Below, piece by piece: positions 30,835 through 45,693 of a stretch of DNA of 64,000 nucleotides; position 1 is the first letter of the stretch, and each line of letters starts with the position of its first letter. Origin of the DNA: a virus; the IMG/VR virus record IMGVR_UViG_3300032267_001142, positions 96,001 to 160,000 of that record, one strand, 5' to 3'. The translations under genes and the position numbers were made by a program. The notes below the pieces were generated by a model that made no database searches, was not told where the DNA came from, and saw only the letters and a list, made by a program, of their open reading frames with translations.

Positions 30835-30908
30835 GCGCGCATCGTATATGAGTATTACTCCTGATTGCCATTCAGGGAAAGCGGTTGCAAGTCCCGCTGC
30901 GCGCTCCA
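30835..30908 (+). tRNA. tRNA-Gly(GCC)
   Basis: GCGCGCA/TGCGCGC, loop TTGCCAT, T-loop TGCAAGT (irregular T stem), CCA. Confidence 0.8.
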
Positions 30909-31098
30909 AGTTTTTCAAAAACCTGTTGACCTTTTCAAAAAAGGCAGTAGAGTGAGTGAAGTAAAGGGAAGCCGCCCTAAACGCAAACGGCGAAAACGAC
31001 CATAGAGAGTCTAGCATTAAAATCGGCCAGCTAGCGCCCCTGTCGGATAGCTTGTAAAAAGCTTAAAGATGTTTGTTATTTGCAGTGGTAGTTATTAT

Positions 31099-31176
31099 GC
31101 GGTATTCGCCTAGTTAGTTATGGCACCTGTCTTCCAAATAGGAATAACGTCGGAGCAAAGCCGACATACCGCACCA
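31099..31176 (+). tRNA. tRNA-Gly(TCC)
   Basis: GCGGTAT/ATACCGC, loop CTTCCAA, T-loop AGCAAAG, CCA. Confidence 0.85.
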
Positions 31177-31185
31177 TTCTTTACT

Positions 31186-31279
31186 TCCAAAGTACACTAA
31201 CTGGAAAGTGGCGAAGCTGTTAACTTCGTGCATCCCACCCCTGCGTGGTATCTAGGTCCGAATCCTAGCTTTGGAGCCA
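31186..31279 (+). tRNA. tRNA-Asn(GTT) with long variable arm
   Basis: TCCAAAG/CTTTGGA, loop CTGTTAA, 23-nt variable region, T-loop TCCGAAT, CCA. Confidence 0.85.
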
Positions 31280-31280
31280 C

Positions 31281-31847
31281 TTAACATTTGGAAGTAATAA
31301 TACCAAGTTTTTTAGCTCTTTTGCGAATTCCTGTTGGGCTAATGTTTATTAATTCCGATATCGAATTCGGGCTGAGTTTTTGCACGACCATCATATCATA
31401 CAGGTCTATTGACGACCAATCAAACTTCTCCCGAAGTTTGCACGCACAAGACCTCGAACAAACTTTGTAACCTACTGGTTTATCTGCGCCGCAGATAGGG
31501 CACGAATTCATTTCTATCACTGTTTCCGGTCTATAGTTGACGAACGACTCATTAAACGCCCGAAAGGTTTCGGGAACATTTGCAACTCCGTTATGCACTT
31601 CTCGATGACAGTTGGAACATAACAAAATACACTTTTTTAGTTCGGCACAAATCTTGCTCCAAGCTTTAGGTGACGACATAGTTTTACCAAACGAAAACTC
31701 TTTAATAGATGGGTCTAAATGATGAAGTTCGAGCGCCGCGTTACATTTTTTGTAATTGCAGATTTGGCAGCATCCTCCCATAGATTCGATGATACGGATT
31801 TTGGTATTTTTGCGCCACATTTTGACATGATTAGAATTTTTGCTCAT
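31281..31847 (-). CDS. HNH endonuclease, antisense to the tRNA array
   Basis: GGCCQIC.Y.KC..ALELHHLDP..KEF...C.LLC.NCHREVH, second Zn finger and C-terminal HTH. Confidence 0.88.
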   Translation of the reverse strand: MSKNSNHVKMWRKNTKIRIIESMGGCCQICNYKKCNAALELHHLDPSIKEFSFGKTMSSPKAWSKICAELKKCILLCSNCHREVHNGVANVPETFRAFNESFVNYRPETVIEMNSCPICGADKPVGYKVCSRSCACKLREKFDWSSIDLYDMMVVQKLSPNSISELINISPTGIRKRAKKLGIITSKC

Positions 31848-32009
31848 ATATTAACAGATTATGTTAATTTACACCATTAGTGGTGTGATGTGAGGGTTAT
31901 CTTGGAATTAGAGCCTATTTCTAGTAGCGACACTGCCAAAGCGTTGAACGTGGCCCGTCATAGTAACGGGATAAAGAAATGCGTTTCTCAACCGCTAGAA
32001 TTCAATTTC

Positions 32010-32085
32010 GGGGCATTAGTGAGAGAAGTTAGCACAGGAAGCTTGCACCTTCCAAGAGACGGCGCGATACCGTCATGCTCCACCA
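32010..32085 (+). tRNA. tRNA-Ala(TGC)
   Basis: GGGGCAT/ATGCTCC with G3:U70, loop CTTGCAC, T-loop CGCGATA. Confidence 0.88.
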
Positions 32086-32097
32086 TTAGTTGAACAT

Positions 32098-32173
32098 CGG
32101 AACGTAGCCTAGCAGTTCAGGCACCTGTTTTGGGAACAGGACGAGGCGGGGGCAGCACCTGCCGTTCCGACCA
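32098..32173 (+). tRNA. tRNA-Pro(TGG)
   Basis: CGGAACG/CGTTCCG, loop TTTGGGA, T-loop GGCAGCA. Confidence 0.88.
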
Positions 32174-32176
32174 TTT

Positions 32177-32263
32177 GGGTAGTTAGACTCGTAGAGTGCG
32201 AGGGCGGATTGTAAACCCGCCTCTGTAATGGACTGGTAGGTGCGACTCCTACATTGCCCACCA
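32177..32263 (+). tRNA. tRNA-Tyr(GTA)
   Basis: GGGTAGT/ATTGCCC, loop TTGTAAA, long variable arm, T-loop TGCGACT. Confidence 0.85.
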
Positions 32264-32269
32264 TTTTAT

Positions 32270-32344
32270 GTCCCATTCGTCCATAAGTTAAGACCGCAGC
32301 CTTTCAAGTTGCAGAACGCGGAGCGTTACCGCGATGGGATACCA
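32270..32344 (+). tRNA. tRNA-Glu(TTC)
   Basis: GTCCCAT/ATGGGAT, loop CTTTCAA, T-loop AGCGTTA. Confidence 0.88.
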
Positions 32345-32470
32345 TTTATAAACGGTAGCTGATAACCTTGGCCGAGGTTTAGGCACGACCGAAACGAGAG
32401 AGACACAGTAGCATATCTAGTAATGCAGGCCCCTAATTCGGGCCTTAACGTGGTGCAAATCCCGCGAGTT

Positions 32471-32488
32471 GGAACGTCCGTGAAATCC
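32471..32488 (+). repeat. 18-nt motif GGAACGTCCGTGAAATCC, copy 1
   Basis: Identical copy at 34926-34943. Confidence 0.9.
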
Positions 32489-32502
32489 TCGATAATTTTG
32501 AT

Positions 32503-32576
32503 ACCTCATTGGTGAATGAATATCACACAACCCTGTCACGGTTGAGTAACGGGTGTAAGTCCCGTATGGGGTGCCA
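32503..32576 (+). tRNA. tRNA-Asp(GTC)
   Basis: ACCTCAT/ATGGGGT, loop CTGTCAC, T-loop TGTAAGT, G73. Confidence 0.85.
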
Positions 32577-32686
32577 TTTTCAATAAAACAGAGGCTATAC
32601 TGTATTAGCGACGAAATCGGAGCCGAAACATAGCGGAGGTTGCAAACTCCGTGGAATAACCCGTCGCTCATTGAAGAATTTTTAAT

Positions 32687-32763
32687 CGTAGTGAGGCTCG
32701 AACAGCATCGACACCCGCTTGATAGGCGGACCAAAGCAAGGGCAGCACTTGCCACTACGACCA
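32687..32763 (+). tRNA. tRNA-Ile(GAT)
   Basis: CGTAGTG/CACTACG, loop TTGATAG, T-loop GGCAGCA. Confidence 0.82.
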
Positions 32764-32837
32764 GCGGGATAGTGTAAGAGTAGCATATCAGTCTCATAAG
32801 CTGAAGACGCCGTTGCAATTTACGGCTCCTGCAACCA
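32763..32837 (+). tRNA. tRNA-Met(CAT); position 1 overlaps the upstream CCA
   Basis: AGCGGGA/TCCTGCA with 1:72 mismatch, loop CTCATAA, 8-nt T-loop TGCAATTT. Confidence 0.8.
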
Positions 32838-32888
32838 TACAGTCCGTCGGCTATTCCTCTGCGCGAGCATGAACCGATGGTTAGTTTC

Positions 32889-32963
32889 GCTGACGTAGCC
32901 CAATGCAGAGGCATGAGGTCGAGAACTTCATTAGTGTAGGTGCGAGTCCTATCGTCAGCACCA
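32889..32963 (+). tRNA. tRNA-Leu(GAG), short variable loop
   Basis: GCTGACG/CGTCAGC, loop TCGAGAA, T-loop TGCGAGT. Confidence 0.82.
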
Positions 32964-32975
32964 ATTTCAAATACT

Positions 32976-33050
32976 CCGCTCAGAGTGTGAAAGATAGCAC
33001 GATACTCTGTCACAGTATTAGAACGAGAGCGTTACTCGTTGGGCGGGCCA
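32976..33050 (+). tRNA. tRNA-Asp(GTC), second copy
   Basis: CCGCTCA/TGGGCGG, loop CTGTCAC, T-loop AGCGTTA. Confidence 0.82.
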
Positions 33051-33094
33051 AAAATTAAATTGTCTAAATCCGGGTTTCTTGTGTAAACTATTGT

Positions 33095-33622
33095 ATGACA
33101 ATCCAGATAGGACATCTCTACAATTCTCTAAAAGTTTTAGAGTTTTCTCACACAGATAAACTAGGCCACAAGATTTGGAAATGCGAGTGCTGCTGCGGCA
33201 AGCTGTGCCTTCAGCCCTCTCGATATCTAGGGAAAACAAAAAGTTGCGGATGTCAAAGGAGAAGCAAAAACATCAAAGGAGAAGGAGAGATATATGGTTC
33301 GTTATTCTCTGGTATGAGATTCGCCGCCAAGCGGCGGCGCATAGTTTTCGATGTCTCTCCGAAATTTTTGTGGCAGCTTTTCCTAAAACAGGAAAGAAAA
33401 TGCGCGCTTAGCGACCTACCATTAGATTTCGGCAGGGGTAAAAGAGGACTGTTCAGAACGGCCTCCCTAGATAGAATAGACTCCAGCAAGGGATACACGG
33501 AGGACAACGTTCAATGGGTTCATCGCCAAGTAAACGTAATGAAGCATGAGCTTTCTTATCAGGAATTTCAGGATTTAGTAGAGAGGGTTTTTAATAAAGC
33601 CCGAAAGGATAAAAAACATTGA
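33095..33622 (+). CDS. HNH-type homing endonuclease
   Basis: WKCECCCG...SCGC, A..R.I.F, SLDRIDSSKGY..DNVQWV...VN.MK. Confidence 0.88.
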   Translation: MTIQIGHLYNSLKVLEFSHTDKLGHKIWKCECCCGKLCLQPSRYLGKTKSCGCQRRSKNIKGEGEIYGSLFSGMRFAAKRRRIVFDVSPKFLWQLFLKQERKCALSDLPLDFGRGKRGLFRTASLDRIDSSKGYTEDNVQWVHRQVNVMKHELSYQEFQDLVERVFNKARKDKKH

Positions 33623-33656
33623 CGTTCGCTGTAAAACGCGCTACTGTCTAAAACAT

Positions 33657-33732
33657 CGCTGTTTAGCAAATCAAGAGATTGCGACCCGCTGAAGACGGGA
33701 TGAGGTCGGCGCGATACCGACAACAGCGGCCA
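33657..33732 (+). tRNA. tRNA-Phe(GAA)
   Basis: CGCTGTT/AACAGCG, loop CTGAAGA, T-loop CGCGATA; TTGACG-17-TACTGT promoter at 33619-33647. Confidence 0.85.
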
Positions 33733-33739
33733 TCTTAAA

Positions 33740-33910
33740 ATGAGAAAGTCTCACCTAGTCGAAAAATTGTTATCGCTCTCAATGAGCGAAGTTTTGAGTC
33801 CGAGAAATTCAAAATACGCAAAAGTAGGCGCATGGATAAGTAAACTCTCCAGCGAAGAAAAAGAAAAATTAAAGACTCTTGAGTCGAAAGACTTTAATCA
33901 TCGAATTTAA
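33740..33910 (+). CDS. Small hypothetical protein (56 aa)
   Basis: Hand-translated MRKSHLVEKLL...DFNHRI*. Confidence 0.45.
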   Translation: MRKSHLVEKLLSLSMSEVLSPRNSKYAKVGAWISKLSSEEKEKLKTLESKDFNHRI

Positions 33911-33915
33911 GAAAT

Positions 33916-33989
33916 GTCTCATTAGCATAACAGTAATGCCTCTGCCTTCCAAGCAGAACATGTCGGGGCGGCACCGACATGGGACTCCA
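33916..33989 (+). tRNA. tRNA-Gly(TCC), second copy
   Basis: GTCTCAT/ATGGGAC, loop CTTCCAA, T-loop GGCGGCA, U73. Confidence 0.87.
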
Positions 33990-33998
33990 ATTTCAAAT

Positions 33999-34072
33999 GG
34001 GTTGCTAGCTTAAAAGTAAAGCCGTGGATTTTTACCCCACCTAACACGGAGCATTACCGTGGCGACTCTCCA
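33999..34072 (+). tRNA. tRNA-Lys(TTT)
   Basis: GGGTTGC/GCGACTC, loop TTTTTAC, T-loop AGCATTA. Confidence 0.83.
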
Positions 34073-34120
34073 CTTCAAAGTTTTTCTGGAAACTTTTAAT
34101 CCAGACGTGTAATATACAGT

Positions 34121-34537
34121 ATGACTAAAATCTGTTATATGTGTAAGCTTCCGAAACCAGTCGAAAAGTTCGCCAAGAAGAAAGCGGCTAAAGACGGGTT
34201 GCAGAGTCGCTGCAACGAGTGTATGTCGAAAACGATGATACAAGTCTATAGGGATGACGTTTCAGCATGGAACGATAAAACTAAGTTGCAAAAAGGACGG
34301 AAAAGAGTTTGGGTTGACGAGCTTAAACAATCTGTTGGCTGTATAGTTTGTGGCGAAGAAAATCCTAGCTGTTTAGAGTTTCATCACGTAAGCGCCTCCA
34401 ATAAAGAACACGACATATCACAAATGATAGTCAATAAAGCTTCCGACGAAAGGATTCGCGAAGAGATAGACAAGTGTTTGATTCTGTGTGCTAATTGCCA
34501 CAGAAAAGTTCATAGAGGATACATCCTGATAGTATAA
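34121..34537 (+). CDS. HNH endonuclease with N-terminal Zn finger
   Basis: C.MCK..KP...F......DGL..RC.EC; GC.VCGE....LEFHH...K...C..LCANCHRKVH. Confidence 0.88.
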   Translation: MTKICYMCKLPKPVEKFAKKKAAKDGLQSRCNECMSKTMIQVYRDDVSAWNDKTKLQKGRKRVWVDELKQSVGCIVCGEENPSCLEFHHVSASNKEHDISQMIVNKASDERIREEIDKCLILCANCHRKVHRGYILIV

Positions 34538-34540
34538 ATC

Positions 34541-34614
34541 GGACTACTAGCATAAAAGTAATGCGTTCGGCCCTTACCCGAATAAATACGGAGCGTTACC
34601 GTGGTTGTCCTCCA
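34541..34614 (+). tRNA. tRNA-Lys(CTT)
   Basis: GGACTAC/GTTGTCC, loop CCCTTAC, T-loop AGCGTTA. Confidence 0.8.
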
Positions 34615-34625
34615 TTTAACAAATT

Positions 34626-34710
34626 CGCTCTGTGATGAAATCAGAATACATGCAGGCTTTAGATACCTGTGCCGAAAGGCGTGCAAGTGCAAATCTTGTC
34701 GGAGCGACCA
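34626..34710 (+). tRNA. tRNA-Leu(TAG), long variable arm
   Basis: CGCTCTG/CGGAGCG, loop TTTAGAT, T-loop TGCAAAT. Confidence 0.85.
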
Positions 34711-34718
34711 TTTTATAT

Positions 34719-34792
34719 TGCCCCTTAGCATAGAAGCAATGCCGTGGACTTTGAACCCACATAAGTCGGAGCGTTACCGACAGGGGCGACCA
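34719..34792 (+). tRNA. tRNA-Gln(TTG)
   Basis: TGCCCCT/AGGGGCG, loop CTTTGAA, T-loop AGCGTTA. Confidence 0.87.
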
Positions 34793-34925
34793 ATTAAATA
34801 ACCTACAGAATATCGCCGCGCCCTCGAAAGCACGGCTGGTCTAACCAAAAGATGCGGCATCTGGCCGCGATGATAGATAGCGGGGTAAGCTCGATAGACG
34901 GCTGAACATACGCGTTAAGTAGGCC

Positions 34926-34943
34926 GGAACGTCCGTGAAATCC
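34926..34943 (+). repeat. 18-nt motif GGAACGTCCGTGAAATCC, copy 2
   Basis: Identical to 32471-32488. Confidence 0.9.
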
Positions 34944-35000
34944 GAGAGTTTAATTTCATAAGGTTCTCTTCGTAAGTATCCTTTCAAAATACTTTCCGTG

Positions 35001-35074
35001 CGGTGCGTGAGTGTAAGTAACCTTCTCGCCTTGGAAGTGAGATATTGGGAGTGCGAATCTCCCCGCGCCGACCA
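35001..35074 (+). tRNA. tRNA-Pro(TGG), second copy (A37)
   Basis: CGGTGCG/CGCGCCG, loop CTTGGAA, T-loop TGCGAAT. Confidence 0.82.
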
Positions 35075-35209: not shown

Positions 35210-35285
35210 GGCCGCTTAGCCCAACAGCAGAGGCGACGAACTCAAAATCCGTAAAGCGAGAGTGCGAATCTCTCAGCGGCTACCA
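35210..35285 (+). tRNA. tRNA-Leu(CAA), short variable loop
   Basis: GGCCGCT/AGCGGCT, loop CTCAAAA, T-loop TGCGAAT. Confidence 0.83.
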
Positions 35286-35495: not shown

Positions 35496-35563
35496 GCCCC
35501 ATGTAAGCACCTAGACCTCCCTTGTAACGAGGCATGACGATTGCGATATCGTATGGGGCTCCA
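35496..35563 (+). tRNA. tRNA-Thr(TGT)-like, 68 nt, no D stem
   Basis: GCCCCAT/ATGGGGC plus TCCA, loop CTTGTAA, 13-nt unpaired D replacement, 6-nt T-loop TGCGAT. Confidence 0.6.
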
Positions 35564-35686: not shown

Positions 35687-35761
35687 GGTTTGTTGGGAAA
35701 CCGTCAATCCGCCCGCCTGCAAAGCGGGAGATGCCACGTTGGATTCGTGGACAAACCTCCA
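35687..35761 (+). tRNA. tRNA-Cys(GCA)
   Basis: GGTTTGT/ACAAACC, U73, loop CTGCAAA, T-loop TTGGATT. Confidence 0.85.
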
Positions 35762-36080: not shown

Positions 36081-36154
36081 GCTCGGCTAGCTTAATGATA
36101 AAGCAAGCCTCTCTAAAAGGTCGTATCTCGGTTTGAGTCCGAGGTCGAGCACCA
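36081..36154 (+). tRNA. Amber suppressor tRNA (anticodon CTA)
   Basis: GCTCGGC/GTCGAGC, D arm GCTT/AAGC, loop CTCTAAA, T arm CTCGG-TTTGAGT-CCGAG, ACCA. Confidence 0.82.
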
Positions 36155-36158: not shown

Positions 36159-36246
36159 GGGTTAATAGACGACTAAAGAGGTCGGCCAAGCTGTAACCTT
36201 GGTTGCTTAAATGCACATTTCGGCGCAATACCGGATTAGCCCACCA
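36159..36246 (+). tRNA. tRNA-Tyr(GTA), second copy
   Basis: GGGTTAA/TTAGCCC, loop CTGTAAC, long variable arm, T-loop CGCAATA. Confidence 0.85.
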
Positions 36247-36251: not shown

Positions 36252-36326
36252 GGCCTATTAGTGTAAAAGTAAGCACGACTGATTCTCAATCAGTAAACCT
36301 CGGAGCGTTACCGAGATAGGCTACCA
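36252..36326 (+). tRNA. tRNA-Glu(CTC)
   Basis: GGCCTAT/ATAGGCT, loop TTCTCAA, T-loop AGCGTTA. Confidence 0.87.
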
Positions 36327-36331: not shown

Positions 36332-36407
36332 GTTCCTATGGTGAAATCAGAAATCATAGAGGCTTGCGAAGCCCCTGTTCCAGATGCGAGTTCTGGTAGG
36401 AACACCA
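36332..36407 (+). tRNA. tRNA-Arg(GCG)
   Basis: GTTCCTA/TAGGAAC, loop TTGCGAA, T-loop TGCGAGT. Confidence 0.85.
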
Positions 36408-36412
36408 TTTAT

Positions 36413-36504
36413 GGCTAGTTAAGTGGTCGAGTGGCCACCTTCAATTGCTAATTGAAAGGCACCCTTAAACAAGGTGTAGCGGGCGGGACGTTAGCTAGCC
36501 GCCA
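36413..36504 (+). tRNA. tRNA-Ser(GCT)
   Basis: GGCTAGT/GCTAGCC, G73, loop TTGCTAA, long variable arm, T-loop GGCGGGA. Confidence 0.83.
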
Positions 36505-36771: not shown

Positions 36772-36847
36772 GTTCGCCTAGCTCAATAGATAGAGCACTA
36801 CTTTGCGAAGGTAGAGGTTCCCGATGCAAGTTCGGGGGTGAACTCCA
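36772..36847 (+). tRNA. tRNA-Arg(GCG), second copy
   Basis: GTTCGCC/GGTGAAC, loop TTGCGAA, T-loop TGCAAGT. Confidence 0.87.
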
Positions 36848-36853: not shown

Positions 36854-36927
36854 CGGAGGTTGATGAAACAGTATCATATTTGGCCTACACCCAAAATTCG
36901 CAAGGGCAGCACTTGCACTTCCGACCA
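36854..36927 (+). tRNA. tRNA-Val(TAC)
   Basis: CGGAGGT/ACTTCCG, loop CCTACAC, T-loop GGCAGCA. Confidence 0.83.
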
Positions 36928-36980: not shown

Positions 36981-37055
36981 GCCGCCGTGGCAGAATAGAT
37001 ATGCGCCAGTCTCCTAAACTGGTTTATGAAAGTGCAACTCTTTCCGGCAGCACCA
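36981..37055 (+). tRNA. tRNA-Arg(CCT)
   Basis: GCCGCCG/CGGCAGC, loop CTCCTAA, T-loop TGCAACT. Confidence 0.85.
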
Positions 37056-37121: not shown

Positions 37122-37198
37122 CGAGTAGTAGTTTATCCTAGAAAAACAGCCCTTCACAAGAGGGCGAAGGTGAGGCATAGGAACTCCCCTCTCGACCA
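37122..37198 (+). pseudogene. Degenerate tRNA (Val(CAC)-like)
   Basis: D arm, GCCCT/AGGGC stem and CCA are present, but the acceptor has mismatches, the T arm is broken and the loop TCACAAG is off register. Confidence 0.5.
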
Positions 37199-37202: not shown

Positions 37203-37277
37203 GCCGCATAAACATAGTCAGCGATGTGCTAGTTTCGTAAACTAGATAGTAGGGTGCGTCTCCCTAATGTGGCTCCA
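37203..37277 (+). tRNA. tRNA-Thr(CGT)
   Basis: GCCGCAT/ATGTGGC, loop TTCGTAA, T-loop TGCGTCT. Confidence 0.86.
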
Positions 37278-37388: not shown

Positions 37389-37463
37389 GTCCCATTAGTG
37401 AAACAGATATAACAATGCGTTTCGACCGCATAATTCCGAGTGCAAATCTTGGGTGGGACACCA
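37389..37463 (+). tRNA. tRNA-Arg(TCG)
   Basis: GTCCCAT/GTGGGAC, loop TTTCGAC, T-loop TGCAAAT. Confidence 0.85.
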
Positions 37464-37600
37464 ATCGCTACGACCATTGCAACCAAACCCAAGTCTCACC
37501 GAGGGCGCAGCCAAGCAGGTATGGTGCAAATCTCCCTGTGCTGTGAGAGACTTGGGAAGGGTGCAAGTGCAACTCCCGCCTTGGCGTCCAATTTTTAGAT

Positions 37601-37675
37601 GGTTACGTGAGTGTGATAGCCGCACTGAATTTTGTGAAAATTCCAGAATGGGAGCGAAACCCATACGTGACCCCA
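37601..37675 (+). tRNA. tRNA-His(GTG) with G-1:C73
   Basis: GGTTACGT/ACGTGACC, loop TTGTGAA, T-loop AGCGAAA. Confidence 0.86.
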
Positions 37676-37739: not shown

Positions 37740-37815
37740 TCAGGTGATGATGTAGCACTCAGCATTCGATTCTGTGAAAATCGCCGGATACGTGGAACTC
37801 GTATGCACCTGACCA
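37740..37815 (+). tRNA. tRNA-His(GTG), atypical (U-1:A73)
   Basis: TCAGGTG/CACCTGA, loop CTGTGAA, T-loop TGGAACT. Confidence 0.72.
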
Positions 37816-38407: not shown

Positions 38408-38478
38408 GTCCTCGGTAATAGATACTTCTGGAGCTTCTAACTCTGAGAAACGCGGCGCGATACCGTGCGGGGACACCA
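38408..38478 (+). tRNA. tRNA-Arg(TCT), shortened D arm
   Basis: GTCCTCG/CGGGGAC, loop CTTCTAA, T-loop CGCGATA; 71 nt. Confidence 0.72.
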
Positions 38479-39101: not shown

Positions 39102-39596
39102 CTAATTACCATGAATAGACACAACACTACGGCACAATTTTAAGAAGTCGTCTAACGCCAAATCATTTTTAGCAACGTTTGCGTTTTTGGTAGTCAAACC
39201 CATATTAGACAAGTCACAAGCGCCGCCTTTACTTCTTGGTACTTTATGGTCTAGTGAGTAGCTATCCGCTTTTAATAAGTCAATCTTTTCGCCTGTTAGG
39301 TAGCAGGTCGGATTTTCGCCAATAAACGCTAACGCATCCTTGAAGGAGATTGCAGGTTCCGCCTGCCCTTTCAATTTTCCGCCCATACTGAAAAATTTAC
39401 CATAAAATCTTTGCAGCTTCCGTCTTAAAGGATGGGCTTTAGAATCGTACTCTTTGGCTTTCCTTAACGCGTAATCTCTAGCAGTTGGGCTAAGATAATA
39501 TCGAACACAAGCAATAGAAACCGATAGATGTTTAGCGATTTTTCTGTAACCCCAAGTTGGGTTTTGTAGTTTACAGTCAAGGACTTTTTGTTTCAT
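39102..39596 (-). CDS. HTH-HNH endonuclease, antisense
   Basis: N-terminal HTH (WGYRKIAKHL); CYLTG...SLDHKVPRSKGG...NMGL....N..K. Confidence 0.88.
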   Translation of the reverse strand: MKQKVLDCKLQNPTWGYRKIAKHLSVSIACVRYYLSPTARDYALRKAKEYDSKAHPLRRKLQRFYGKFFSMGGKLKGQAEPAISFKDALAFIGENPTCYLTGEKIDLLKADSYSLDHKVPRSKGGACDLSNMGLTTKNANVAKNDLALDDFLKLCRSVVSIHGN

Positions 39597-39642: not shown

Positions 39643-39734
39643 GGTTCTGTAATGTAAAGTAGCATCGCACGTCTTATAAACGTGGCGCACTTGATTGGTG
39701 CCGGGTCTCAGTGCAAGTCTGAGCAGAACTACCA
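39643..39734 (+). tRNA. tRNA-Ile(TAT) with long variable arm
   Basis: GGTTCTG/CAGAACT, CACGT-CTTATAA-ACGTG, ~22-nt variable arm, T-loop TGCAAGT. Confidence 0.83.
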
Positions 39735-39737: not shown

Positions 39738-39813
39738 CGCTCCTTACTCCAATGCAGAGAGCGTGGTCTCAGAAACCGCGAAAGTGTCGTTGCAAGTACG
39801 ACAGGAGCGACCA
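39738..39813 (+). tRNA. tRNA-Leu(CAG), short variable loop
   Basis: CGCTCCT/AGGAGCG, loop CTCAGAA, T-loop TGCAAGT. Confidence 0.84.
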
Positions 39814-39823: not shown

Positions 39824-39905
39824 TCCTAGTAAGGAAACGAGTGTAACCGGCGGTCTGTTAAACCGTGAAATAACGAGCTTCGTGCGACTCGAAGACTAGG
39901 AGCCA
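39824..39905 (+). tRNA. tRNA-Asn(GTT), second copy, enlarged variable region
   Basis: TCCTAGT/ACTAGGA, loop CTGTTAA, T-loop TGCGACT. Confidence 0.82.
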
Positions 39906-40052: not shown

Positions 40053-40136
40053 ACACCCTCTCCCAAGAAGGATTGGAACTCGTCTCCAAAACGAGAGTCA
40101 TCAGACTAAGCCGAGCGTTACGGCAAGGGTGTGCCA
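40053..40136 (+). tRNA. tRNA-Trp(CCA) with variable-arm hairpin
   Basis: ACACCCT/AGGGTGT, G73, loop CTCCAAA, AGTC-ATCA-GACT arm, T-loop AGCGTTA. Confidence 0.78.
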
Positions 40137-40140: not shown

Positions 40141-40214
40141 GGGCTGTTCGACTAAAATTAAGTCACGAGTCTCTTAAACTCAGGAACACGGAGAATTACC
40201 GTGACGGCTCACCA
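40141..40214 (+). tRNA. tRNA-Lys(CTT), second copy
   Basis: GGGCTGT/ACGGCTC, loop CTCTTAA, T-loop AGAATTA. Confidence 0.86.
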
Positions 40215-40289
40215 GCGGGATAGACAAGTAGTTAAGTCAGGGGTTTCATAAGCCTCCATGCATGGGTGCAAATCCCATTTCCGCAACCA
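40214..40289 (+). tRNA. tRNA-Met(CAT), initiator-like; position 1 overlaps the upstream CCA
   Basis: AGCGGGA/TTCCGCA with 1:72 mismatch, G-rich anticodon stem, loop TTCATAA, T-loop TGCAAAT. Confidence 0.84.
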
Positions 40290-40299: not shown

Positions 40300-40374
40300 G
40301 GGCCATTGATGAAATAGTATCATGCAATTCTGGCAGAATTGATTTTCGGGTGCGAATCCCGAATGTGTCCACCA
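40300..40374 (+). tRNA. tRNA-Ala(GGC), bulged acceptor stem
   Basis: GGGCCAT/ATG(T)GTCC with G3:U70, loop CTGGCAG, T-loop TGCGAAT. Confidence 0.82.
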
Positions 40375-40376: not shown

Positions 40377-40468
40377 GGAAGCTAGGCGAATATAAGTTGG
40401 TCGCGCTAGTCTTGAAAACTAGTTCACTGTAACAGGTGAGGTCGGGGCAGTACCGACAGCTTCCGCCA
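40377..40468 (+). tRNA. tRNA-Ser(TGA)
   Basis: GGAAGCT/AGCTTCC, loop CTTGAAA, long variable arm, T-loop GGCAGTA. Confidence 0.87.
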
Positions 40469-40991
40469 TTTTGGATACTGAGTATCCACGGTGTATCAAA
40501 ACTAACTTACAGATTTCCTCGAACTCTTCTAATGTGGAGTCTGATTTTGCGCGATTTACCGCTTTTAGCGTCAAGCCGCAATTTGAAAGAGAATTATCTC
40601 CTCCTTTCGCAATAGGTTGAATATGGTCAAGCTCATAGGTTTTCGGCTCTAGTAGATTTATCGGTAGTCCCGTAAGATAGCAGATAGGCTGAGACAAGAG
40701 CTTGTCTTTAAGTTCTTGAGCAGAGAACAGAGAAGCTGCACGATTTCGTCCGCCCGCTAATCCGGCCTTAGTGCATCGCCGCCCCGCTATACATTGGAAA
40801 TTATCCTTTTTGCGTTTCAAAATTCCGTTGAAATTCGCCCGATGCTTTCTCGTTCGTGCGAAGCTTCGTTTTTTACCTTCAGGATTCAAATAGTAAGCGA
40901 CAGTACTATAAGCGCAACCTAAAAATTTCGCTATGTTTTTATACCCCCATGTTGGGTTGGAGGTTTTACAATCAAGGATTTTTTGTTTCAT
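40419..40991 (-). CDS. HTH-HNH endonuclease, paralog of 39102..39596; 3' end overlaps tRNA-Ser(TGA) antisense
   Basis: MKQKILDCK..NPTWGY..IA; CYLTG...ELDHIQPIAKGGDN.L.NCGL....N.AK. Confidence 0.88.
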   Translation of the reverse strand: MKQKILDCKTSNPTWGYKNIAKFLGCAYSTVAYYLNPEGKKRSFARTRKHRANFNGILKRKKDNFQCIAGRRCTKAGLAGGRNRAASLFSAQELKDKLLSQPICYLTGLPINLLEPKTYELDHIQPIAKGGDNSLSNCGLTLKAVNRAKSDSTLEEFEEICKLVLIHRGYSVSKMAEAVGTAPTSPVTVN

Positions 40992-41043
40992 ACATGATTT
41001 TACACGTCGCGTCACATTTTTTCTAGTATTTGTATCGCTGCTT

Positions 41044-41132
41044 AGCAGATTACCCGAATAAGATTCGGCCTCGCCTCGAAAGCGAAGGGCACCCCAAAAG
41101 GGTGTGGGGCGCGCTACCTCAATCTGCTGCCA
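41044..41132 (+). tRNA. tRNA-Ser(CGA)
   Basis: AGCAGAT/ATCTGCT, G73, loop CTCGAAA, long variable arm, T-loop CGCGCTA. Confidence 0.83.
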
Positions 41133-41135: not shown

Positions 41136-41226
41136 GGTAAGTAAATCATCAAAGTGATGACCTAAGCTGGAAACTTAGTGGCACCCTTAAAAAAGGTGTG
41201 GGATGCGAGTTCTCTGCTTACCGCCA
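41136..41226 (+). tRNA. tRNA-Ser(GGA)
   Basis: GGTAAGT/GCTTACC, loop CTGGAAA, long variable arm, T-loop TGCGAGT. Confidence 0.83.
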
Positions 41227-41250
41227 CGCAGCTCAAAATGAGCTGCTTTT

Positions 41251-41325
41251 AGCCCTGTGGTGTAATAGAAACATATCTGGTTCTGACCCAGCAGACTCAA
41301 CGTGCAAGTCGTTGCGGGGCTTCCA
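41251..41325 (+). tRNA. tRNA-Gln(CTG)
   Basis: AGCCCTG/CGGGGCT, loop TTCTGAC, T-loop TGCAAGT. Confidence 0.85.
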
Positions 41326-41328
41326 ATT

Positions 41329-41789: not shown

Positions 41790-41819
41790 CAGCTCAGAAA
41801 GTTTCGATATCATAAAAGC

Positions 41820-42236: not shown

Positions 42237-42378
42237 TGCTCTTTATACCTTATTCCAACGATTTTTTACTTCAGTCTCGATGCCGCCTCGGCGGAGGATG
42301 TAAATATGGGAAAATAATCGAGTTGGATGCTCGTTTTGAAAACGAGATAGGAATTATAGTAATTCGATAACGAATTAT

Positions 42379-42455
42379 GTCCTGTGAGGGAGCAAGTTGA
42401 ACCCCACAATCTGCAAAATTGTTGTTGCACGGCGCGATACCGTGACAGGACTCCA
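42379..42455 (+). tRNA. tRNA-Cys(GCA), second copy
   Basis: GTCCTGT/ACAGGAC, U73, loop CTGCAAA, T-loop CGCGATA. Confidence 0.85.
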
Positions 42456-42457
42456 AT

Positions 42458-42802
42458 ATGAAACCCGAAGCGCAAAGAAAAGCTATCATTAAGTTCTGTG
42501 GCTGGAAAGACATCTCCGATAGCTGCCGCTATCGTTTAATGACTTTAGCAGTGATTCGAGACGAGCGGATGTTTAACGTCCACGACCCTTTGACGGATTT
42601 GAACGCGATGCGCGAGGCGGAGAGGATGTTGTCAGTAAAGCAAGCGAAACTTTATGTCGAGCTTTTGGGTGAGATAGTTCTGGACAACGGGGGCTGTTAC
42701 TTCAATAAGAACAAATATATGGCATTCGTGGCTCTAAATTCCACGGCTGCGCAGCGCGCCGAAGCTTTTCTAAAAGCTCTTGGACTTTGGACAGAAGATT
42801 AA
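42458..42802 (+). CDS. Hypothetical protein (ABA-sandwich-like), similar to 53579..53944
   Basis: GW...DP..DLNAM.EAE..L...A.AAQRAEAFL. Confidence 0.7.
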   Translation: MKPEAQRKAIIKFCGWKDISDSCRYRLMTLAVIRDERMFNVHDPLTDLNAMREAERMLSVKQAKLYVELLGEIVLDNGGCYFNKNKYMAFVALNSTAAQRAEAFLKALGLWTED

Positions 42803-42807
42803 AAGTG

Positions 42808-42835
42808 TTGACGTTTTAGCAAAAGAGCCTAGAAT
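42808..42835 (+). promoter_or_regulatory. sigma70-type promoter for the large ncRNA
   Basis: TTGACG-16-TAGAAT. Confidence 0.7.
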
Positions 42836-42841
42836 GTAACC

Positions 42842-43815
42842 ATGCGATTGAGACAGGAAACTCTCTCGAAAGCAACAAAAGGGGGCATGACCTCTTAGAT
42901 AACGCGCCGCAAGGCGAAGAAAGGCTGAAAGCCCTACATTTTCAGCCGCCGTTTACGGTCACTTATGCAACCGTAGTTCCTCGGTTTACAATGCCAAACA
43001 TTGTGGACTAGACTATCGAGGTTCCGGCGTCCCGAAAGGGGCGTTTCCAGACGTGAAACTCTGGTAAACGGGTTCAAACTTAAATAGTCGAGAACGAAGC
43101 GTAGTTGTTTATGTCGAGCCTAGCAAGCAAGACGCGAACAGCAGCCCAAACGGGAGTGGACTCGTGAGAGTTTATGACCGAGAAAGCCGTCGAAATCGCC
43201 GCTGGCGAAAGATATCATGTTGTGTTGTATTGGGTGGTCGAAAGGTCATCTAGCGACTGGACAGACGCAACATAATAGGGATAAGTATTTGGAACTTACA
43301 AGAAAAAGTTCTGTCCACGTTAGCGCGATAAGCAGATTAAGTCGCTGGCCTTCGGGCAACAGCGAGCGTTAAACCTCTCAAGGGAATAACGTTTGGCGTC
43401 AGAGTAAGATTGGTTGGCCTTTAGCGGGGTTAGCTGAGACGAAAAAACGCTGAGTAGCGCGACGGTTAATGGATATGCTACCATTCAAAAGCATCTGTGA
43501 GAAATAGCGGTCGAAAGGTCGCTGGATAACAAGATAACACATACGTCTTGTAAAGGTTCTCGAATCGAAGCATAGTCTCAGCTTTGATAATTTGGTCAGC
43601 GGGCGAGCTATTTGAACGCAGTCGTTTGCAAAACTTCTATAGCAAGGTGAGATTCCTTGGCTGACCTCCATCTCATCAGTAGCGTATTACGCTAGTTTGG
43701 CTGCGGCCCATTGGGTCGCGAATTAAAGAGTTCGGGTTGCTCTGAGCTTAGTAGATTGGCAGGACGGAGGTAATAATATCCGCGCTTGTTAGTTGCTGGA
43801 CGGGGAGTTAGCCCC
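42842..43815 (+). ncRNA. Large (~970 nt) highly structured non-coding RNA, GOLLD/ROOL-like or novel
   Basis: No + strand ORF of 60 aa or more; own promoter; many GNRA/UUCG hairpins and long-range helices; ends just before tRNA-Ala(CGC). Confidence 0.7.
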
Positions 43816-43824
43816 TTGAGAAAT

Positions 43825-43899
43825 GGGTCATTGGTGAAATAGAATCACGACGCACTCGCAATGCGTAGTCGAGGGTGCGACTCCCTCATGTATCCACCA
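43825..43899 (+). tRNA. tRNA-Ala(CGC), bulged acceptor stem
   Basis: GGGTCAT/ATG(T)ATCC with G3:U70, loop CTCGCAA, T-loop TGCGACT. Confidence 0.83.
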
Positions 43900-43933
43900 C
43901 AATTTTTACGTCGGAAACACAAAGAAAACATAA

Positions 43934-44008
43934 ATGCCACTCAATATCTTAACTCTTTCGGTAGTGATGTCCGCGTTACTAATCTTAACTAGCCGCCGTA
44001 TTCGATGA
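43934..44008 (+). CDS. Tiny hydrophobic peptide (24 aa)
   Basis: MPLNILTLSVVMSALLILTSRRIR*, ATGA-coupled to the next gene. Confidence 0.35.
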   Translation: MPLNILTLSVVMSALLILTSRRIR

Positions 44009-44505
44009 AATTTTTCAAGAAAGTCAAAACCATTACCTCCAAAGAGGGCGAGCTGCACTTCGAGCGCTGGGCGATTTTCGAGTCAAAGTGGCTCTCGTGG
44101 TATATCCACAGAATACACAAGGCAGACAGGGACCATTTACATTCCTATCCTTGGAATTTTCTGTCACTAATCTTGAAGGGCTGTTATCTCGAAGAGAACG
44201 CTTACGATACAGCAGATGGAAGTTTCTGCACAGGCTTAAAGATAAAGAGCCCGTTCACAGTCACTTACTGTAACAAATCTAAATTTCATAAAATCAACAC
44301 CATCATCTCTGGTCCGGTTTACACGACGATGTTTGTGTGGGGCGACACCCAGAAGTGGTTTTATCGGGTAGGAAAGAAGAGAATTCCTTTTGAGGAATAT
44401 CGCGAAATCAAAGCCGCAGCCAAAGAGGCGGGGCTTTCTATCGAGGAGTATATCTTCAAATATGAGATTGGGCTCTTGACTCCGTCGCAAAAACGAGTAG
44501 ACTAG
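44005..44505 (+). CDS. Cupin-like hypothetical protein
   Basis: YIHRIH..D.DHLHSYPWNF.S.IL.G.Y.E. Confidence 0.7.
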   Translation: MKFFKKVKTITSKEGELHFERWAIFESKWLSWYIHRIHKADRDHLHSYPWNFLSLILKGCYLEENAYDTADGSFCTGLKIKSPFTVTYCNKSKFHKINTIISGPVYTTMFVWGDTQKWFYRVGKKRIPFEEYREIKAAAKEAGLSIEEYIFKYEIGLLTPSQKRVD

Positions 44506-44517
44506 TAAAAATCAAAC

Positions 44518-44904
44518 ATGAAATCATTCCTAAAACTTGCAATCATCGCCGTCGCGTCACTATCAATCGCTGGGTGCCAGCCAGAATCAGACGTAGCCGC
44601 CTATAATGTTTCGCAGGCCGCGCATAATTTTGAAGTCAACAGACGAGTCGTGTTCTACAACGGCATCACAGGAGATTACATACTCACCATCGAGGGTCTT
44701 CTATCTGTGACGCCAGAAGATAAGCGCCTCTCGGTTATCGTAAAGACTGGGCCGAATCAGTATAAGAAGCACTATCTTGGTGTTTCTGATAACGTGACTT
44801 GGTTCTGCGAACAAATCGAATCCGTTCCAGCGTCGCCTTTTCATTATCGTGTCATCTTCCGTCCTACCACGATTATCCCAGATGTCGAAGTTAGGACGCG
44901 CTAA
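44518..44904 (+). CDS. Putative lipoprotein
   Basis: Lipobox SIAGC; NFEV.RRVVFYNGITG.Y...IEG. Confidence 0.8.
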   Translation: MKSFLKLAIIAVASLSIAGCQPESDVAAYNVSQAAHNFEVNRRVVFYNGITGDYILTIEGLLSVTPEDKRLSVIVKTGPNQYKKHYLGVSDNVTWFCEQIESVPASPFHYRVIFRPTTIIPDVEVRTR

Positions 44905-44922
44905 GAGAAGTTTAGTCAAAAT

Positions 44923-45006
44923 GTCGGTGTGAGTTAATGGCGAATAGCACAGCCTCTCCGCTTAAAACGGATACTTTTGCAGGTGCAAGTCCTGTCACCG
45001 ATACCA
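44923..45006 (+). tRNA. tRNA-Leu(TAA), enlarged D region, short variable loop
   Basis: GTCGGTG/CACCGAT, loop CTTAAAA, T-loop TGCAAGT. Confidence 0.75.
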
Positions 45007-45013
45007 AATTACA

Positions 45014-45238
45014 ATGAATGGAACATATCTTGACGCTCTCAATGTCACACTACACTGGTTTGGAGGCTCAATCAATCGAATGGATATTTTCGTGGCCTCT
45101 ATCGAAGGACGCGTTATGAGAGATTTGGTTGATTCGGGACATTTGAGAAAAAGATTTTTTGGATGGGAAATCACTAGTAAAGGGCGCGAAGCTCTCGAAG
45201 AAGCTGACATCCATTGTTTCGAGGACACGCGTTCATAA
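45014..45238 (+). CDS. Small hypothetical protein (wHTH-like)
   Basis: LV..G.L......WEIT.KG.EAL. Confidence 0.55.
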   Translation: MNGTYLDALNVTLHWFGGSINRMDIFVASIEGRVMRDLVDSGHLRKRFFGWEITSKGREALEEADIHCFEDTRS

Positions 45239-45244
45239 TTTTAT

Positions 45245-45318
45245 CGCTAATTCGTTCAAAAGCAGGACTCGCGTTTCATAAGCGCAGGACGCTGGAGCGT
45301 TACCAGCATTAGCGACCA
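45245..45318 (+). tRNA. tRNA with CAT anticodon (elongator Met or Ile2)
   Basis: CGCTAAT/ATTAGCG, loop TTCATAA, T-loop AGCGTTA. Confidence 0.82.
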
Positions 45319-45409
45319 TGTTAGTAAAACCCCGTCTCCCTCGGTTAAGGGGAGGTTGCCAGCGATGGCGATAATATCTGGGGCCGTAAAGTCGGAATCC
45401 GAACCTCCA

Positions 45410-45489
45410 CGCGGTCGGGCATAGGAGAAGTTTCTTCTGGTCTGTCTCATAAGCAGATAAATTACGTGCGATTCGTAACGCCGCAACCA
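45410..45489 (+). tRNA. Atypical tRNA-Met(CAT), initiator-like C1:A72
   Basis: TCTGT-CTCATAA-GCAGA, T arm TTACG-TGCGATT-CGTAA, 3' CGCCGCAACCA; irregular acceptor and D arm. Confidence 0.6.
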
Positions 45490-45536
45490 ACAGACTGTGC
45501 AAGCCTATACACAAAACTCAAATCGCGCAGTCATTT

Positions 45537-45610
45537 CGAGACATAGTTCAATAGTAGAATTTTTGATTGACATTCAAAAGACGAAGGAGCGTAACCTTCT
45601 GTTTCGACCA
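45537..45610 (+). tRNA. tRNA-Val(GAC)
   Basis: CGAGACA/TGTTTCG, loop TTGACAT, T-loop AGCGTAA. Confidence 0.84.
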
Positions 45611-45619
45611 AATTTTAAC

Positions 45620-45693
45620 GCCTCGTTAATTTAATAGTAAACCGCCTTTTTGGTAAAAAGGGTTCGCTGGAGCGTAACCAGCACGAGGCTCCA
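45620..45693 (+). tRNA. tRNA-Thr(GGT)
   Basis: GCCTCGT/ACGAGGC, loop TTGGTAA, T-loop AGCGTAA. Confidence 0.84.

Follow-up and report, generated by a model that had tools for sequence, protein, structure and literature searches.

Few nucleotides in biology are as conserved as U55 and G18, which textbooks count among the determinants of the L-shape of transfer RNA (tRNA). U54 of the T-loop is methylated by TrmA to give 5-methyluridine (m5U54), U55 is isomerised by TruB to pseudouridine (Psi55), and the 19:56 pair offers a flat face against which RNase P, the ribosome and further partners stack. We describe here an array of 54 tRNA genes at positions 30835-45693 of a viral DNA window (the whole 64,000-nt stretch that was analysed, positions 96001-160000 of IMG/VR virus record IMGVR_UViG_3300032267_001142), which we read, as the best account of the data, as functional tRNAs whose elbow follows a second, covarying design. 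With canonical bacterial and phage tRNAs, as represented by Rfam family RF00005 and by the tRNA clusters of jumbo phages (PMC6409571), they share the cloverleaf, the 7-nt anticodon loop, the encoded CCA end and the synthetase identity elements, and likewise the arrangement as an array amid HNH homing endonucleases and small open reading frames (ORFs).

Three other described systems bear on this locus. Bacteria may carry L-arrays, long and horizontally transferred arrays of spare tRNAs (Santamaria-Gomez 2021, PMC8421152; Tran 2016, PMC4758250), for which an array unit was defined as at least 20 tRNA genes at a density of at least 2 per kb (PMC4758250). Verrucomicrobia are named among the L-array phyla, and the L-array of Anabaena is induced by translational stress (PMC8421152); in that paper the terms T loop, T arm, D loop, G18 and tertiary do not appear. 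T-loops also occur in RNAs other than tRNA. According to bioRxiv 10.1101/2022.12.26.521914, those of the flavin mononucleotide (FMN) and cobalamin riboswitches read YGNRA (UGNRA 88.7%, CGNRA 10.9%) followed by two bulged bases, and their intercalator is almost exclusively adenosine; a ribosomal RNA (rRNA) T-loop reads GGAAG, and the tRNA loop, with U at position 2, is an outlier among T-loops. Finally, phage tRNAs with changes in the anticodon loop were reported to escape anticodon nucleases (van den Berg 2023, PMC10264068), and CbCash, a Schlafen nuclease whose activator is cyclic tetra-adenylate (cA4), was reported to cut the T-loop of many tRNAs on the 5' side of U55, cleavage being abolished by a single substitution of U54 or U55; the targeting of phage tRNAs was left as an open question by its authors (PMC13462974).

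The array was found to differ from canonical tRNAs in that G18, U54 and U55 are replaced. A first-pass annotation of the sequence had claimed that T54-T55-C56 was missing from every tRNA that it folded, and this was borne out by the complete set (0/54). G55 was present in 51/54 tRNAs (50 in the earlier count) and G55-C56 in 47/54, the same figure as before, and AG stood at positions 18-19, where GG is expected, in 47/54 D-loops, G19 and C56 being mostly retained. The T-loop is closed by G-C at 53:61, as is usual for tRNAs, and this fixes its register; this loop is of 7 nt in 52/54 cases, with 8 nt in the tRNA at 32763 and 6 nt in that at 35496. The loops fall mainly into the classes TGCRANT (23), AGCRTNA (12), CGCRNTA (6) and GGCRGNA (6), and positions 54:58 hold U:A in 26 tRNAs, A:U in 11, G:G in 6 and C:A in 5. 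Five tRNAs had been named as exceptions (Asp 32503, His 37741, Lys 40141 and the suppressor 36081, with a covarying 19-56 contact, and Asn 31186, which keeps GG with C55 C56). All five were correct, and two more were found, Cys 35687 (GT with TTGGATT) and the Cys-like 43594 (AT with TGAGATT). In these seven tRNAs the 19-56 covariation proposed earlier was upheld (two A-U, two U-A, one each of C-G and G-C, and one U-G wobble), and all seven obeyed a rule at 18:55, whereby A18 accompanies G55 and G18 accompanies U55 or C55. Outside the array, three tRNA-like genes and the transfer-messenger RNA (tmRNA) of the same genome keep TTCGA, and in one array-bearing bacterium all 20 of the 20 dispersed tRNAs fetched were GG/TTCRA, most of them without an encoded CCA. 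The array pattern is thus not a product of chance, and the rewiring belongs to the array and not to genome composition.

Covariation was assessed on a gapless alignment of 129 distinct tRNAs from phage and bacterial arrays in which the D stem has 4 bp, the D-loop 7 nt and the variable loop 4 nt, this fixed-register selection being meant to avoid fitting the register. The sample comprised all 11 qualifying tRNAs from the window, all 8 tRNAs without C56 from other loci, and random samples of both elbow types. Stem positions paired in 97.9% of cells, compared with 54% after shuffling and 38-46% when the partners were slid, and all 21 stem pairs varied on both sides. The 19:56 position held a standard pair in 129/129 tRNAs (GC 118, UA 4, AU 3, GU 3, CG 1), with 8 double changes, while 18:55 was A:G in 69, G:U in 58 and C:G in 2 (Fisher 7e-35), such that A18 was found in 69/71 G55 cases and G18 in 58/58 U55 cases. 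The covariation suggested by the first-pass annotation is thus seen on this alignment at both 19:56 and 18:55.

The same contacts were then counted among the matches listed in searches of other viral and bacterial contigs, a scope that holds for all pooled and locus-wide counts below. In arrays that contain both types, a GG D-loop was found in 309/334 U55 tRNAs as opposed to 16/180 G55 tRNAs; since this contrast is taken within mixed arrays, relatedness and composition are shared by both classes. The tRNAs lacking C56 had the matching dinucleotide at 18-19 in 50/71 cases, against 24/142 for a wrong-identity control, and those that failed to match were mostly low-scoring or mis-registered folds. 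Across 1057 pooled alternative tRNAs, 54:58 was U:A in 545, A:U in 248, G:G in 127 and C:A in 72, in contrast to canonical tRNAs, where it was U:A in 630/633. Position 57 was A or G in all 1057, U33 was kept in 87% and a purine at 37 in 98%, and A8 replaced U8 in about 20% of the alternative class compared with about 5% of the canonical class. A GNRA tetraloop closed by 54:59 was considered as another fold of the loop and dropped, as 54:59 pairs only partly whereas 54:58, 19:56 and 18:55 covary cleanly. An elbow predicted to consist of A18-G55 together with a Watson-Crick 19:56 pair of any identity is therefore well supported.

This predicted elbow resembles the generic T-loop of riboswitches, rRNA and RNase P RNA in its G at position 2, its purine at position 4 and its U/C-A or G-G at positions 1 and 5, and would resemble it further in the two bulged bases after the motif and in an adenosine as the intercalating partner. 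Unlike the generic T-loop, the array loops sit in a tRNA and keep a Watson-Crick contact of position 3 (residue 56) with residue 19. The A1:U5 version (AGCGU), with 11 examples in the window, is not among the motifs listed in bioRxiv 10.1101/2022.12.26.521914. From these likenesses we infer a geometry in which the array tRNAs exchange U55 and an intercalating G18 for the generic G55 and an intercalating A18, with 19:56 kept. Animal mitochondrial tRNAs (e.g. PMC2777451) also lack G18-G19 and T-Psi-C; their elbows, however, are degenerate and variable in size, whereas in the array the loop is a defined one of 7 nt, and the contact that replaces the canonical one is specific and covaries.

The remaining features of the array tRNAs look like those of working molecules. 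G3-U70 was present in 3/3 tRNA-Ala genes (32010, 40300, 43825), G-1:C73 in the tRNA-His gene at 37602, and an extra U-1:A73 pair in that at 37741. A20 is a determinant for bacterial arginyl-tRNA synthetase (ArgRS), and it directly follows AG in 5/5 tRNA-Arg genes, a position which supports the assignment of AG to residues 18-19. A73 was found in the tRNA-Leu genes and the initiator-type 1x72 mismatch (A1xA72) in two CAT tRNAs, and the anticodon loops are of 7 nt with U33 and purine 37 kept. A strict scan for the cloverleaf, with a 7-bp acceptor stem and 5-bp anticodon and T stems, was passed by 38/54. The proposal made at the outset was that selection has maintained these genes as functional tRNAs, and that their alternative elbow preserves the 19-56 platform. 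All of the computational evidence, from stem and 19:56 covariation, 18:55, identity elements and conservation, agrees with this proposal, function itself being argued at the level of sequence.

The record is 186,105 bp long with direct terminal repeats and is estimated to be complete; the window has a GC content of about 46%, and beyond 12 kb most of its genes lie on the plus strand. All 54 tRNA genes are on the plus strand and each ends in an encoded N73-CCA. Together they cover 41 anticodons and 20 amino acids, and include 1 amber suppressor and 4 CAT tRNAs, in 14.9 kb (3.6 per kb); at two junctions (32763 and 40214) neighbouring tRNAs share the final A of CCA. The earlier total of 53 was short by one gene on recount, while the expectation that standard tRNA finders would under-call the array proved right, with 16-24 of the 54 reported. 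ARAGORN found 24 tRNAs and 1 tmRNA with default settings, and 34 tRNAs with relaxed settings. Rfam at its gathering score (29 bits) found 16 tRNAs, GOLLD RNA and the tmRNA in the whole window and, in E-value mode, 24 tRNAs of 33-55 bits in the array region, the remainder of the 54 going unreported. A custom cloverleaf scanner, which demanded stems, loop lengths and N73-CCA and left the T-loop unconstrained, gave 38 high-scoring matches, all on the plus strand between 30835 and 45610, and its best matches on the minus strand or outside the array had much lower scores. A covariance model trained on 31 array tRNAs gave about 54 matches in the array, and the final catalogue combines the tool matches with a hand parse of the extra covariance-model matches. 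This model was rejected as a detector of the alternative elbow, as canonical tRNAs also scored 60-70 bits with it, and was unusable for prevalence, as it matched all 151 Verrucomicrobiota genomes.

The occurrence of the design elsewhere was analysed by searching IMG/VR with one alternative T-arm followed by CCA. This query was present in at least 117 contigs, and almost all of the loci were tRNA arrays, in which a cloverleaf scan identified 1066 distinct tRNAs, 391 with G55 and 650 with U55. Several contigs were wholly or nearly of the new type (19/20, 19/19, 22/22 and 30/30 tRNAs in L011, L044, L051 and L108, respectively) and many others were mixed; the design spanned contigs with a tRNA GC content of 0.36 to 0.71. 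The same pattern was found in at least 120 contigs of bacterial genomes, about half of them metagenome-assembled genomes (MAGs) or chromosomes of Verrucomicrobiota. The bacterial matches lay in dense arrays, each of 10-31 tRNAs and made up almost entirely of the new type, and Verrucomicrobiota chromosomes carried same-elbow arrays of 25-32 tRNAs in 4-6 kb. In two closed or near-closed bacterial genomes the arrays lay amid ordinary chromosomal genes (LacI, LysR, a TonB receptor), with genes for an HNH endonuclease and a sigma factor after them. In the Nibricoccus chromosome a TROVE/Ro60-like gene was seen inside one of two near-identical arrays 36 kb apart (L245:12772-14265), with an HNH endonuclease and a sigma-70 factor after both alternative-elbow arrays.

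The Verrucomicrobiota alternative-elbow arrays are L-arrays in the sense of PMC8421152. L-arrays are dense, supernumerary, near-complete and CCA-encoding, like the phage set, which at 3.6 genes per kb lies within the density definition; the phage array, however, is broken up by ORFs, and it is not supernumerary in a bacterial replicon beside a housekeeping set, as are its counterparts in the two bacterial genomes. The trn operon of Anabaena was canonical save for one tRNA-Ile(GAT) (AAAAGTG / GGCAGTA). The first-pass annotation had also raised the possibility that the elbow is shared by the host's own tRNAs or is already common in described arrays, and here the outcome was divided: the elbow is common in phage and bacterial accessory arrays, bacterial housekeeping tRNAs are canonical, and we found no paper that describes it. 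Within the searchable full-text literature, outside which subscription journals lie, no description of tRNAs with A18/G55 was found, either in phages or in arrays. The design is thus widespread in mobile tRNA arrays yet, as far as can be searched, undescribed.

The nearest relative found, IMGVR_UViG_3300042197_004918, encodes an RNA ligase that is 63% identical, and 25/25 of its tRNAs have GG and GTTCRA. In a comparison that bears on conversion in place versus a swap of the entire array, the similarity between tRNAs of the two phages was only slightly higher for the same anticodon (0.62) than for pairs with different anticodons (0.57). A BLAST search of GenBank phages with this array and two all-alternative arrays recovered only canonical arrays, those of the four cultured phages CcrColossus, RHph_I1_18, CcrRogue and Moab and of the published huge phage LR745206. 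In the last of these, an uncultured phage (LR745206.1; L270, 380404-396476), several tRNAs combined GG and U55 with the T-loops ATCGTAA or ATCGTTA; A54:U58 with U55 kept shows that a 54:58 swap is possible without the 18:55 swap. The best matches to the array tRNAs themselves were in Verrucomicrobiota array contigs (76-81% identity), a weak hint of the host.

The table lists what was found in the array and elsewhere in the genome. Directly downstream of the last tRNA, Pfam matches delineate an RNA end-healing and sealing gene cluster (45732-55018). Two related HNH endonuclease genes lie within the array on the minus strand (39102-39596 and 40419-41015), have a 66-nt stretch at their 5' ends in common (77% identical) and are probably homing endonucleases. 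Searches of the phage for a Schlafen domain (PF04326) and for a CCA-adding enzyme (PF01743) were both negative. A GOLLD RNA (RF02032) was recognised inside the array at 43215-43584 (and 42842-43815), its score of 150.6 bits lying just above the threshold of 150; the Cys-like tRNA that follows it resembles GOLLD-linked tRNAs (bioRxiv 10.1101/2024.12.08.627333). There was no sign of TAG recoding behind the amber suppressor, as read-through of any of the three stops lengthens ORFs similarly; a CTA tRNA was also present in IMGVR_UViG_3300042197_004918 and in Rhizobium phage RHph_I1_18. Class I and class II architectures are shuffled in the array, with short variable arms in three tRNA-Leu (32889, 35210, 39738), a feature also seen in that relative, and long variable regions in Asn (31186, 39824), Trp (40053) and the TAT tRNA (39643). 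An exact 18-nt repeat, GGAACGTCCGTGAAATCC, occurs at 32471-32488, after the AAT tRNA-like core, and at 34926-34943, both in ORF-free array spacers.

Outside the window, the canonical-elbow tRNA-like genes might, judging from their sequences, act as decoys or in other roles. The ORF-free stretch 53023-53312 shows, by eye, the motifs GAGGAAAG and CAGAAC..GGCTATA together with a long terminal helix of 12-14 bp. A 351-nt slice gave no Rfam match to RNase P RNA even at E values up to 10, and no homologue of the stretch was found in other viral loci.

Table. Features of the tRNA array and of the surrounding genome. Positions refer to the window unless marked genome; 18-19 gives the D-loop dinucleotide.
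Feature	Position	Strand	18-19	T-loop	Remarks
tRNA-Gly(GCC)	30835..30908	+	AG	TGCAAGT	53:61 is a U-C mismatch
tRNA-Gly(TCC)	31099..31176	+	AG	AGCAAAG	
tRNA-Asn(GTT)	31186..31279	+	GG	TCCGAAT	Exception (C55 C56); long variable arm
tRNA-Ala(TGC)	32010..32085	+	AG	CGCGATA	G3-U70
tRNA-Pro(TGG)	32098..32173	+	AG	GGCAGCA	
tRNA-Tyr(GTA)	32177..32263	+	AG	TGCGACT	Long variable arm
tRNA-Glu(TTC)	32270..32344	+	AG	AGCGTTA	
tRNA-like core, outside the 54	32408..32465	+		TGCAAATC	Anticodon AAT; 8-nt loop; without normal acceptor stem or CCA
tRNA-Asp(GTC)	32503..32576	+	AA	TGTAAGT	Exception (G55 U56)
tRNA-Ile(GAT)	32687..32763	+	AG	GGCAGCA	Final CCA A common to next gene
tRNA(CAT), initiator-like	32763..32837	+	AG	TGCAATTT	A1xA72 mismatch; 8-nt T-loop
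tRNA-Leu(GAG)	32889..32963	+	AG	TGCGAGT	Short variable arm; A73
tRNA-Asp(GTC)	32976..33050	+	AG	AGCGTTA	
tRNA-Phe(GAA)	33657..33732	+	AG	CGCGATA	
tRNA-Gly(TCC)	33916..33989	+	AG	GGCGGCA	
tRNA-Lys(TTT)	33999..34072	+	AG	AGCATTA	
tRNA-Lys(CTT)	34541..34614	+	AG	AGCGTTA	
tRNA-Leu(TAG)	34626..34710	+	AG	TGCAAAT	13-nt variable arm
tRNA-Gln(TTG)	34719..34792	+	AG	AGCGTTA	
tRNA-Pro(TGG)	34996..35074	+	AG	TGCGAAT	Weak D stem
tRNA-Leu(CAA)	35210..35285	+	AG	TGCGAAT	Short variable arm
tRNA-Thr(TGT)	35496..35563	+		TGCGAT	6-nt T-loop; reduced D arm; viral contig L099 has an 85% identical copy
tRNA-Cys(GCA)	35687..35761	+	GU	TTGGATT	Exception (U55 G56)
Amber suppressor tRNA(CTA)	36081..36154	+	GA	TTTGAGT	Exception (U55 U56)
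tRNA-Tyr(GTA)	36159..36246	+	AG	CGCAATA	Long variable arm
tRNA-Glu(CTC)	36252..36326	+	AG	AGCGTTA	
tRNA-Arg(GCG)	36332..36407	+	AG	TGCGAGT	A20
tRNA-Ser(GCT)	36411..36504	+		GGCGGGA	Long variable arm; hand parse
tRNA-Arg(GCG)	36772..36847	+	AG	TGCAAGT	A20
tRNA-Val(TAC)	36854..36927	+	AG	GGCAGCA	
tRNA-Arg(CCT)	36981..37055	+	AG	TGCAACT	A20
Doubtful degenerate tRNA-like element, outside the 54	37122..37198	+			Covariance model 14.4 bits
tRNA-Thr(CGT)	37203..37277	+	AG	TGCGTCT	A8
tRNA-Arg(TCG)	37389..37463	+	AG	TGCAAAT	A20
Doubtful tRNA-like element, outside the 54	37509..37590	+		TGCAAGTGCAACT	Duplicated T-loop; CCA; covariance model 7.8 bits
tRNA-His(GTG)	37602..37675	+	AG	AGCGAAA	G-1 (37601) opposite C73
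tRNA-His(GTG)	37741..37815	+	AC	TGGAACT	Exception (G55 G56); U-1 (37740) opposite A73
tRNA-Arg(TCT)	38408..38478	+	AG-A	CGCGATA	Reduced D arm
tRNA(TAT)	39643..39734	+	AG	TGCAAGT	Long variable arm
tRNA-Leu(CAG)	39738..39813	+	AG	TGCAAGT	Short variable arm
tRNA-Asn(GTT)	39824..39905	+	AG	TGCGACT	11-nt variable region
tRNA-Trp(CCA)	40053..40136	+	AG	AGCGTTA	13-nt variable region
tRNA-Lys(CTT)	40141..40214	+	AU	AGAATTA	Exception (G55 A56); final A common to next gene
tRNA(CAT), initiator-like	40214..40289	+	AG	TGCAAAT	A1xA72 mismatch
tRNA-Ala(GGC)	40300..40374	+	AG	TGCGAAT	G3-U70; bulged acceptor
tRNA-Ser(TGA)	40377..40468	+	AG	GGCAGTA	Long variable arm
tRNA-Ser(CGA)	41044..41132	+	AG	CGCGCTA	Long variable arm
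tRNA-Ser(GGA)	41136..41226	+	AG	TGCGAGT	Long variable arm; repeat in common with Ser 36411
tRNA-Gln(CTG)	41251..41325	+	AG	TGCAAGT	
tRNA-Cys(GCA)	42379..42455	+	AG	CGCGATA	
Cys-like tRNA(GCA)	43594..43670	+	AU	TGAGATT	G55 A56; poor anticodon stem; 10 nt past GOLLD match
tRNA-Ala(CGC)	43825..43899	+	AG	TGCGACT	G3-U70; bulged acceptor
tRNA-Leu(TAA)	44923..45006	+		TGCAAGT	Enlarged D region
tRNA(CAT)	45245..45318	+	AG	AGCGTTA	
tRNA(CAT)	45410..45489	+		TGCGATT	Long hairpin replacing D arm
tRNA-Val(GAC)	45537..45610	+	AG	AGCGTAA	
tRNA-Thr(GGT)	45620..45693	+	AG	AGCGTAA	Weak D stem
RNA ligase PF09414	45732-46367				Pfam
GH16 domain protein	47937-48665				
Histidine phosphatase	49611-50270				Pfam
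R2K ATP-grasp protein	50283-51098				Pfam
Metallophosphoesterase	51115-51915				Pfam
2H phosphoesterase	54515-55018				Pfam, weak match
tmRNA	58109-58522			UUCGA	Canonical T-loop; 95 bits; tag peptide AKVKTAWSAFRNNLTVAFGSFSPVVA
tRNA-Met, outside window	genome 5538-5612	-	GG	TTCGAGT	66.5 bits; no encoded CCA
tRNA scaffold	genome 14186-14312	-	GG	TTCGA	77-nt middle replacing anticodon arm; no encoded CCA
58-nt mini-tRNA	genome 14900-14957	-	GG	TTCGA	Without anticodon arm; no encoded CCA

As to what the array is for, we lean slightly towards a complete, phage-carried decoding set built on the second elbow design and serving as a tRNA supply that is proof against T-loop factors. The T-loop is of the generic (U/C/G/A)-G-N-R-N type in place of the tRNA-specific U-U-C-R-A, with an adenosine, and not a guanosine, at position 18 predicted to intercalate from the D-loop, the outer 19:56 pair kept Watson-Crick whatever its identity, and 54:58 changing in matched sets (U:A, A:U, G:G, C:A). 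By established enzymology, TrmA and TruB cannot make m5U54 or Psi55 without U54-U55, and factors that read or cut the UUC of the T-loop would lose their site. As the identity elements are kept, host synthetases would on this proposal still charge the array tRNAs, and the phage pool could sustain translation if those of the host were cleaved or put out of action in some other way at the T-loop, as by Schlafen nucleases of the Cash type. The U54 and U55 required by Cash are exactly the bases absent from the array T-loops. The idea of variants that lack the site is the same as for the phage tRNAs that evade anticodon nucleases (PMC10264068); here, in contrast, the change lies in the T-loop and calls for a compensating change in the D-loop. 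The same module would be mobile, and is found in bacterial chromosomes too, as an array of spare tRNAs. Evasion of T-loop-reading factors is thus the leading idea for the purpose of the array, and in our analysis its chances of being right are about evenly balanced. The RNA ligase, phosphatase, ATP-grasp and phosphoesterase genes just downstream of the array are context in its favour. Among 51 loci with at least 8 tRNAs, the share of the new type was at least 90% in 15, below 40% in 34 and in between in 2, a bimodality which fits an all-or-none benefit, although the loci were picked for holding one particular T-arm, so that the distribution is possibly biased and its weight is reduced. Further observations weigh against evasion. 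The canonical tmRNA and tRNA-like genes mean that not every elbow of the phage would be protected; the RNA ligase homologue of IMGVR_UViG_3300042197_004918 lies beside a canonical array, so that the repair genes are not specific to the elbow; many phage arrays contain both elbows, a mixture not accounted for by a broad T-loop nuclease on its own; and the arrays in bacterial chromosomes need a story other than phage counter-defence.

The elbow may instead have been selected for independence from modification or for faster folding, as a self-sufficient T-loop requiring neither m5U54, Psi55 nor chaperoning by TruB would suit tRNAs needed in bulk late in infection, or drawn from a silent array under stress, with no nuclease involved. 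Riboswitch YGNRA loops with an adenosine intercalator do fold unmodified, the design recurs in bacterial spare arrays, the stress-induced Anabaena L-array holding one such tRNA, and replacement of U8, another modified base, is likewise commoner in the alternative class. We nevertheless consider this explanation rather unlikely, as it leaves the several isosteric versions of 54:58 and 19:56 within one genome unexplained, and canonical phage arrays, that of the nearest relative found included, manage without the change. A more elaborate form of evasion, in which the A18-G55 elbow marks a functionally separate mobile tRNA system common to phages and bacterial spare arrays, a complete decoder set invisible to UUC readers (TruB, TrmA, T-loop nucleases), perhaps supplemented in this phage by canonical-elbow decoys (the mini-tRNA without an anticodon and the early-region tRNA whose anticodon arm is expanded) and by a reduced RNase P-like RNA of its own (53023-53312), seems unlikely. 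We also doubt that constraint was simply relaxed, with accessory tRNAs freed from host modification enzymes and a viable elbow spreading by descent or horizontal transfer without advantage. Such drift would fit the frequency of mixed arrays and the concentration of the design in mobile arrays that are related to one another and come in many cases from Verrucomicrobiota; it sits poorly, however, with a strict 18:55 dichotomy with almost no intermediates, with the conversion of 54/54 tRNAs here while a relative is fully canonical, and with the wide range of tRNA GC (0.36 to 0.71) among the carrier contigs.

Two further explanations fit the data less well. The elbow could act as a mark of self, if a phage or array factor destroyed or blocked canonical-elbow tRNAs for host shut-off and exempted its own. 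A set for 20 amino acids would permit full replacement of the host pool, and within and beside the array lie many small ORFs without an assigned function; however, the phage lacks a Schlafen-type domain (PF04326), no tRNase was recognisable among the 20 ORFs scanned, and the phage's own tmRNA and tRNA-Met would suffer too, which makes this very unlikely. It is harder still to credit that the elements are non-decoding, that is, tRNA-like processing signals, decoys, primers or pseudogenes. Their Rfam scores are low (33-55 bits compared with 66 for the canonical tRNA-Met), in several the D arm is reduced, a loop is of odd length or the acceptor is bulged, and GOLLD RNA lies inside the array; against this, anticodon coverage is full, U33 and purine 37 and the identity elements are present, and compensatory changes occur in every stem.

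If the reading of the array as functional tRNAs with a second elbow design is confirmed, the tRNA elbow would have at least two viable natural solutions, and these arrays would be a natural system in which to learn what TruB, TrmA, RNase P, EF-Tu and the ribosome truly require of the T-loop. The design would also be a candidate counter-measure to the recently discovered defence nucleases that cleave T-loops, and might furnish scaffolds that are nuclease-resistant or independent of modification. As current annotation would then miss half or more of such genes, the tRNA counts of phages from metagenomes would be underestimated.

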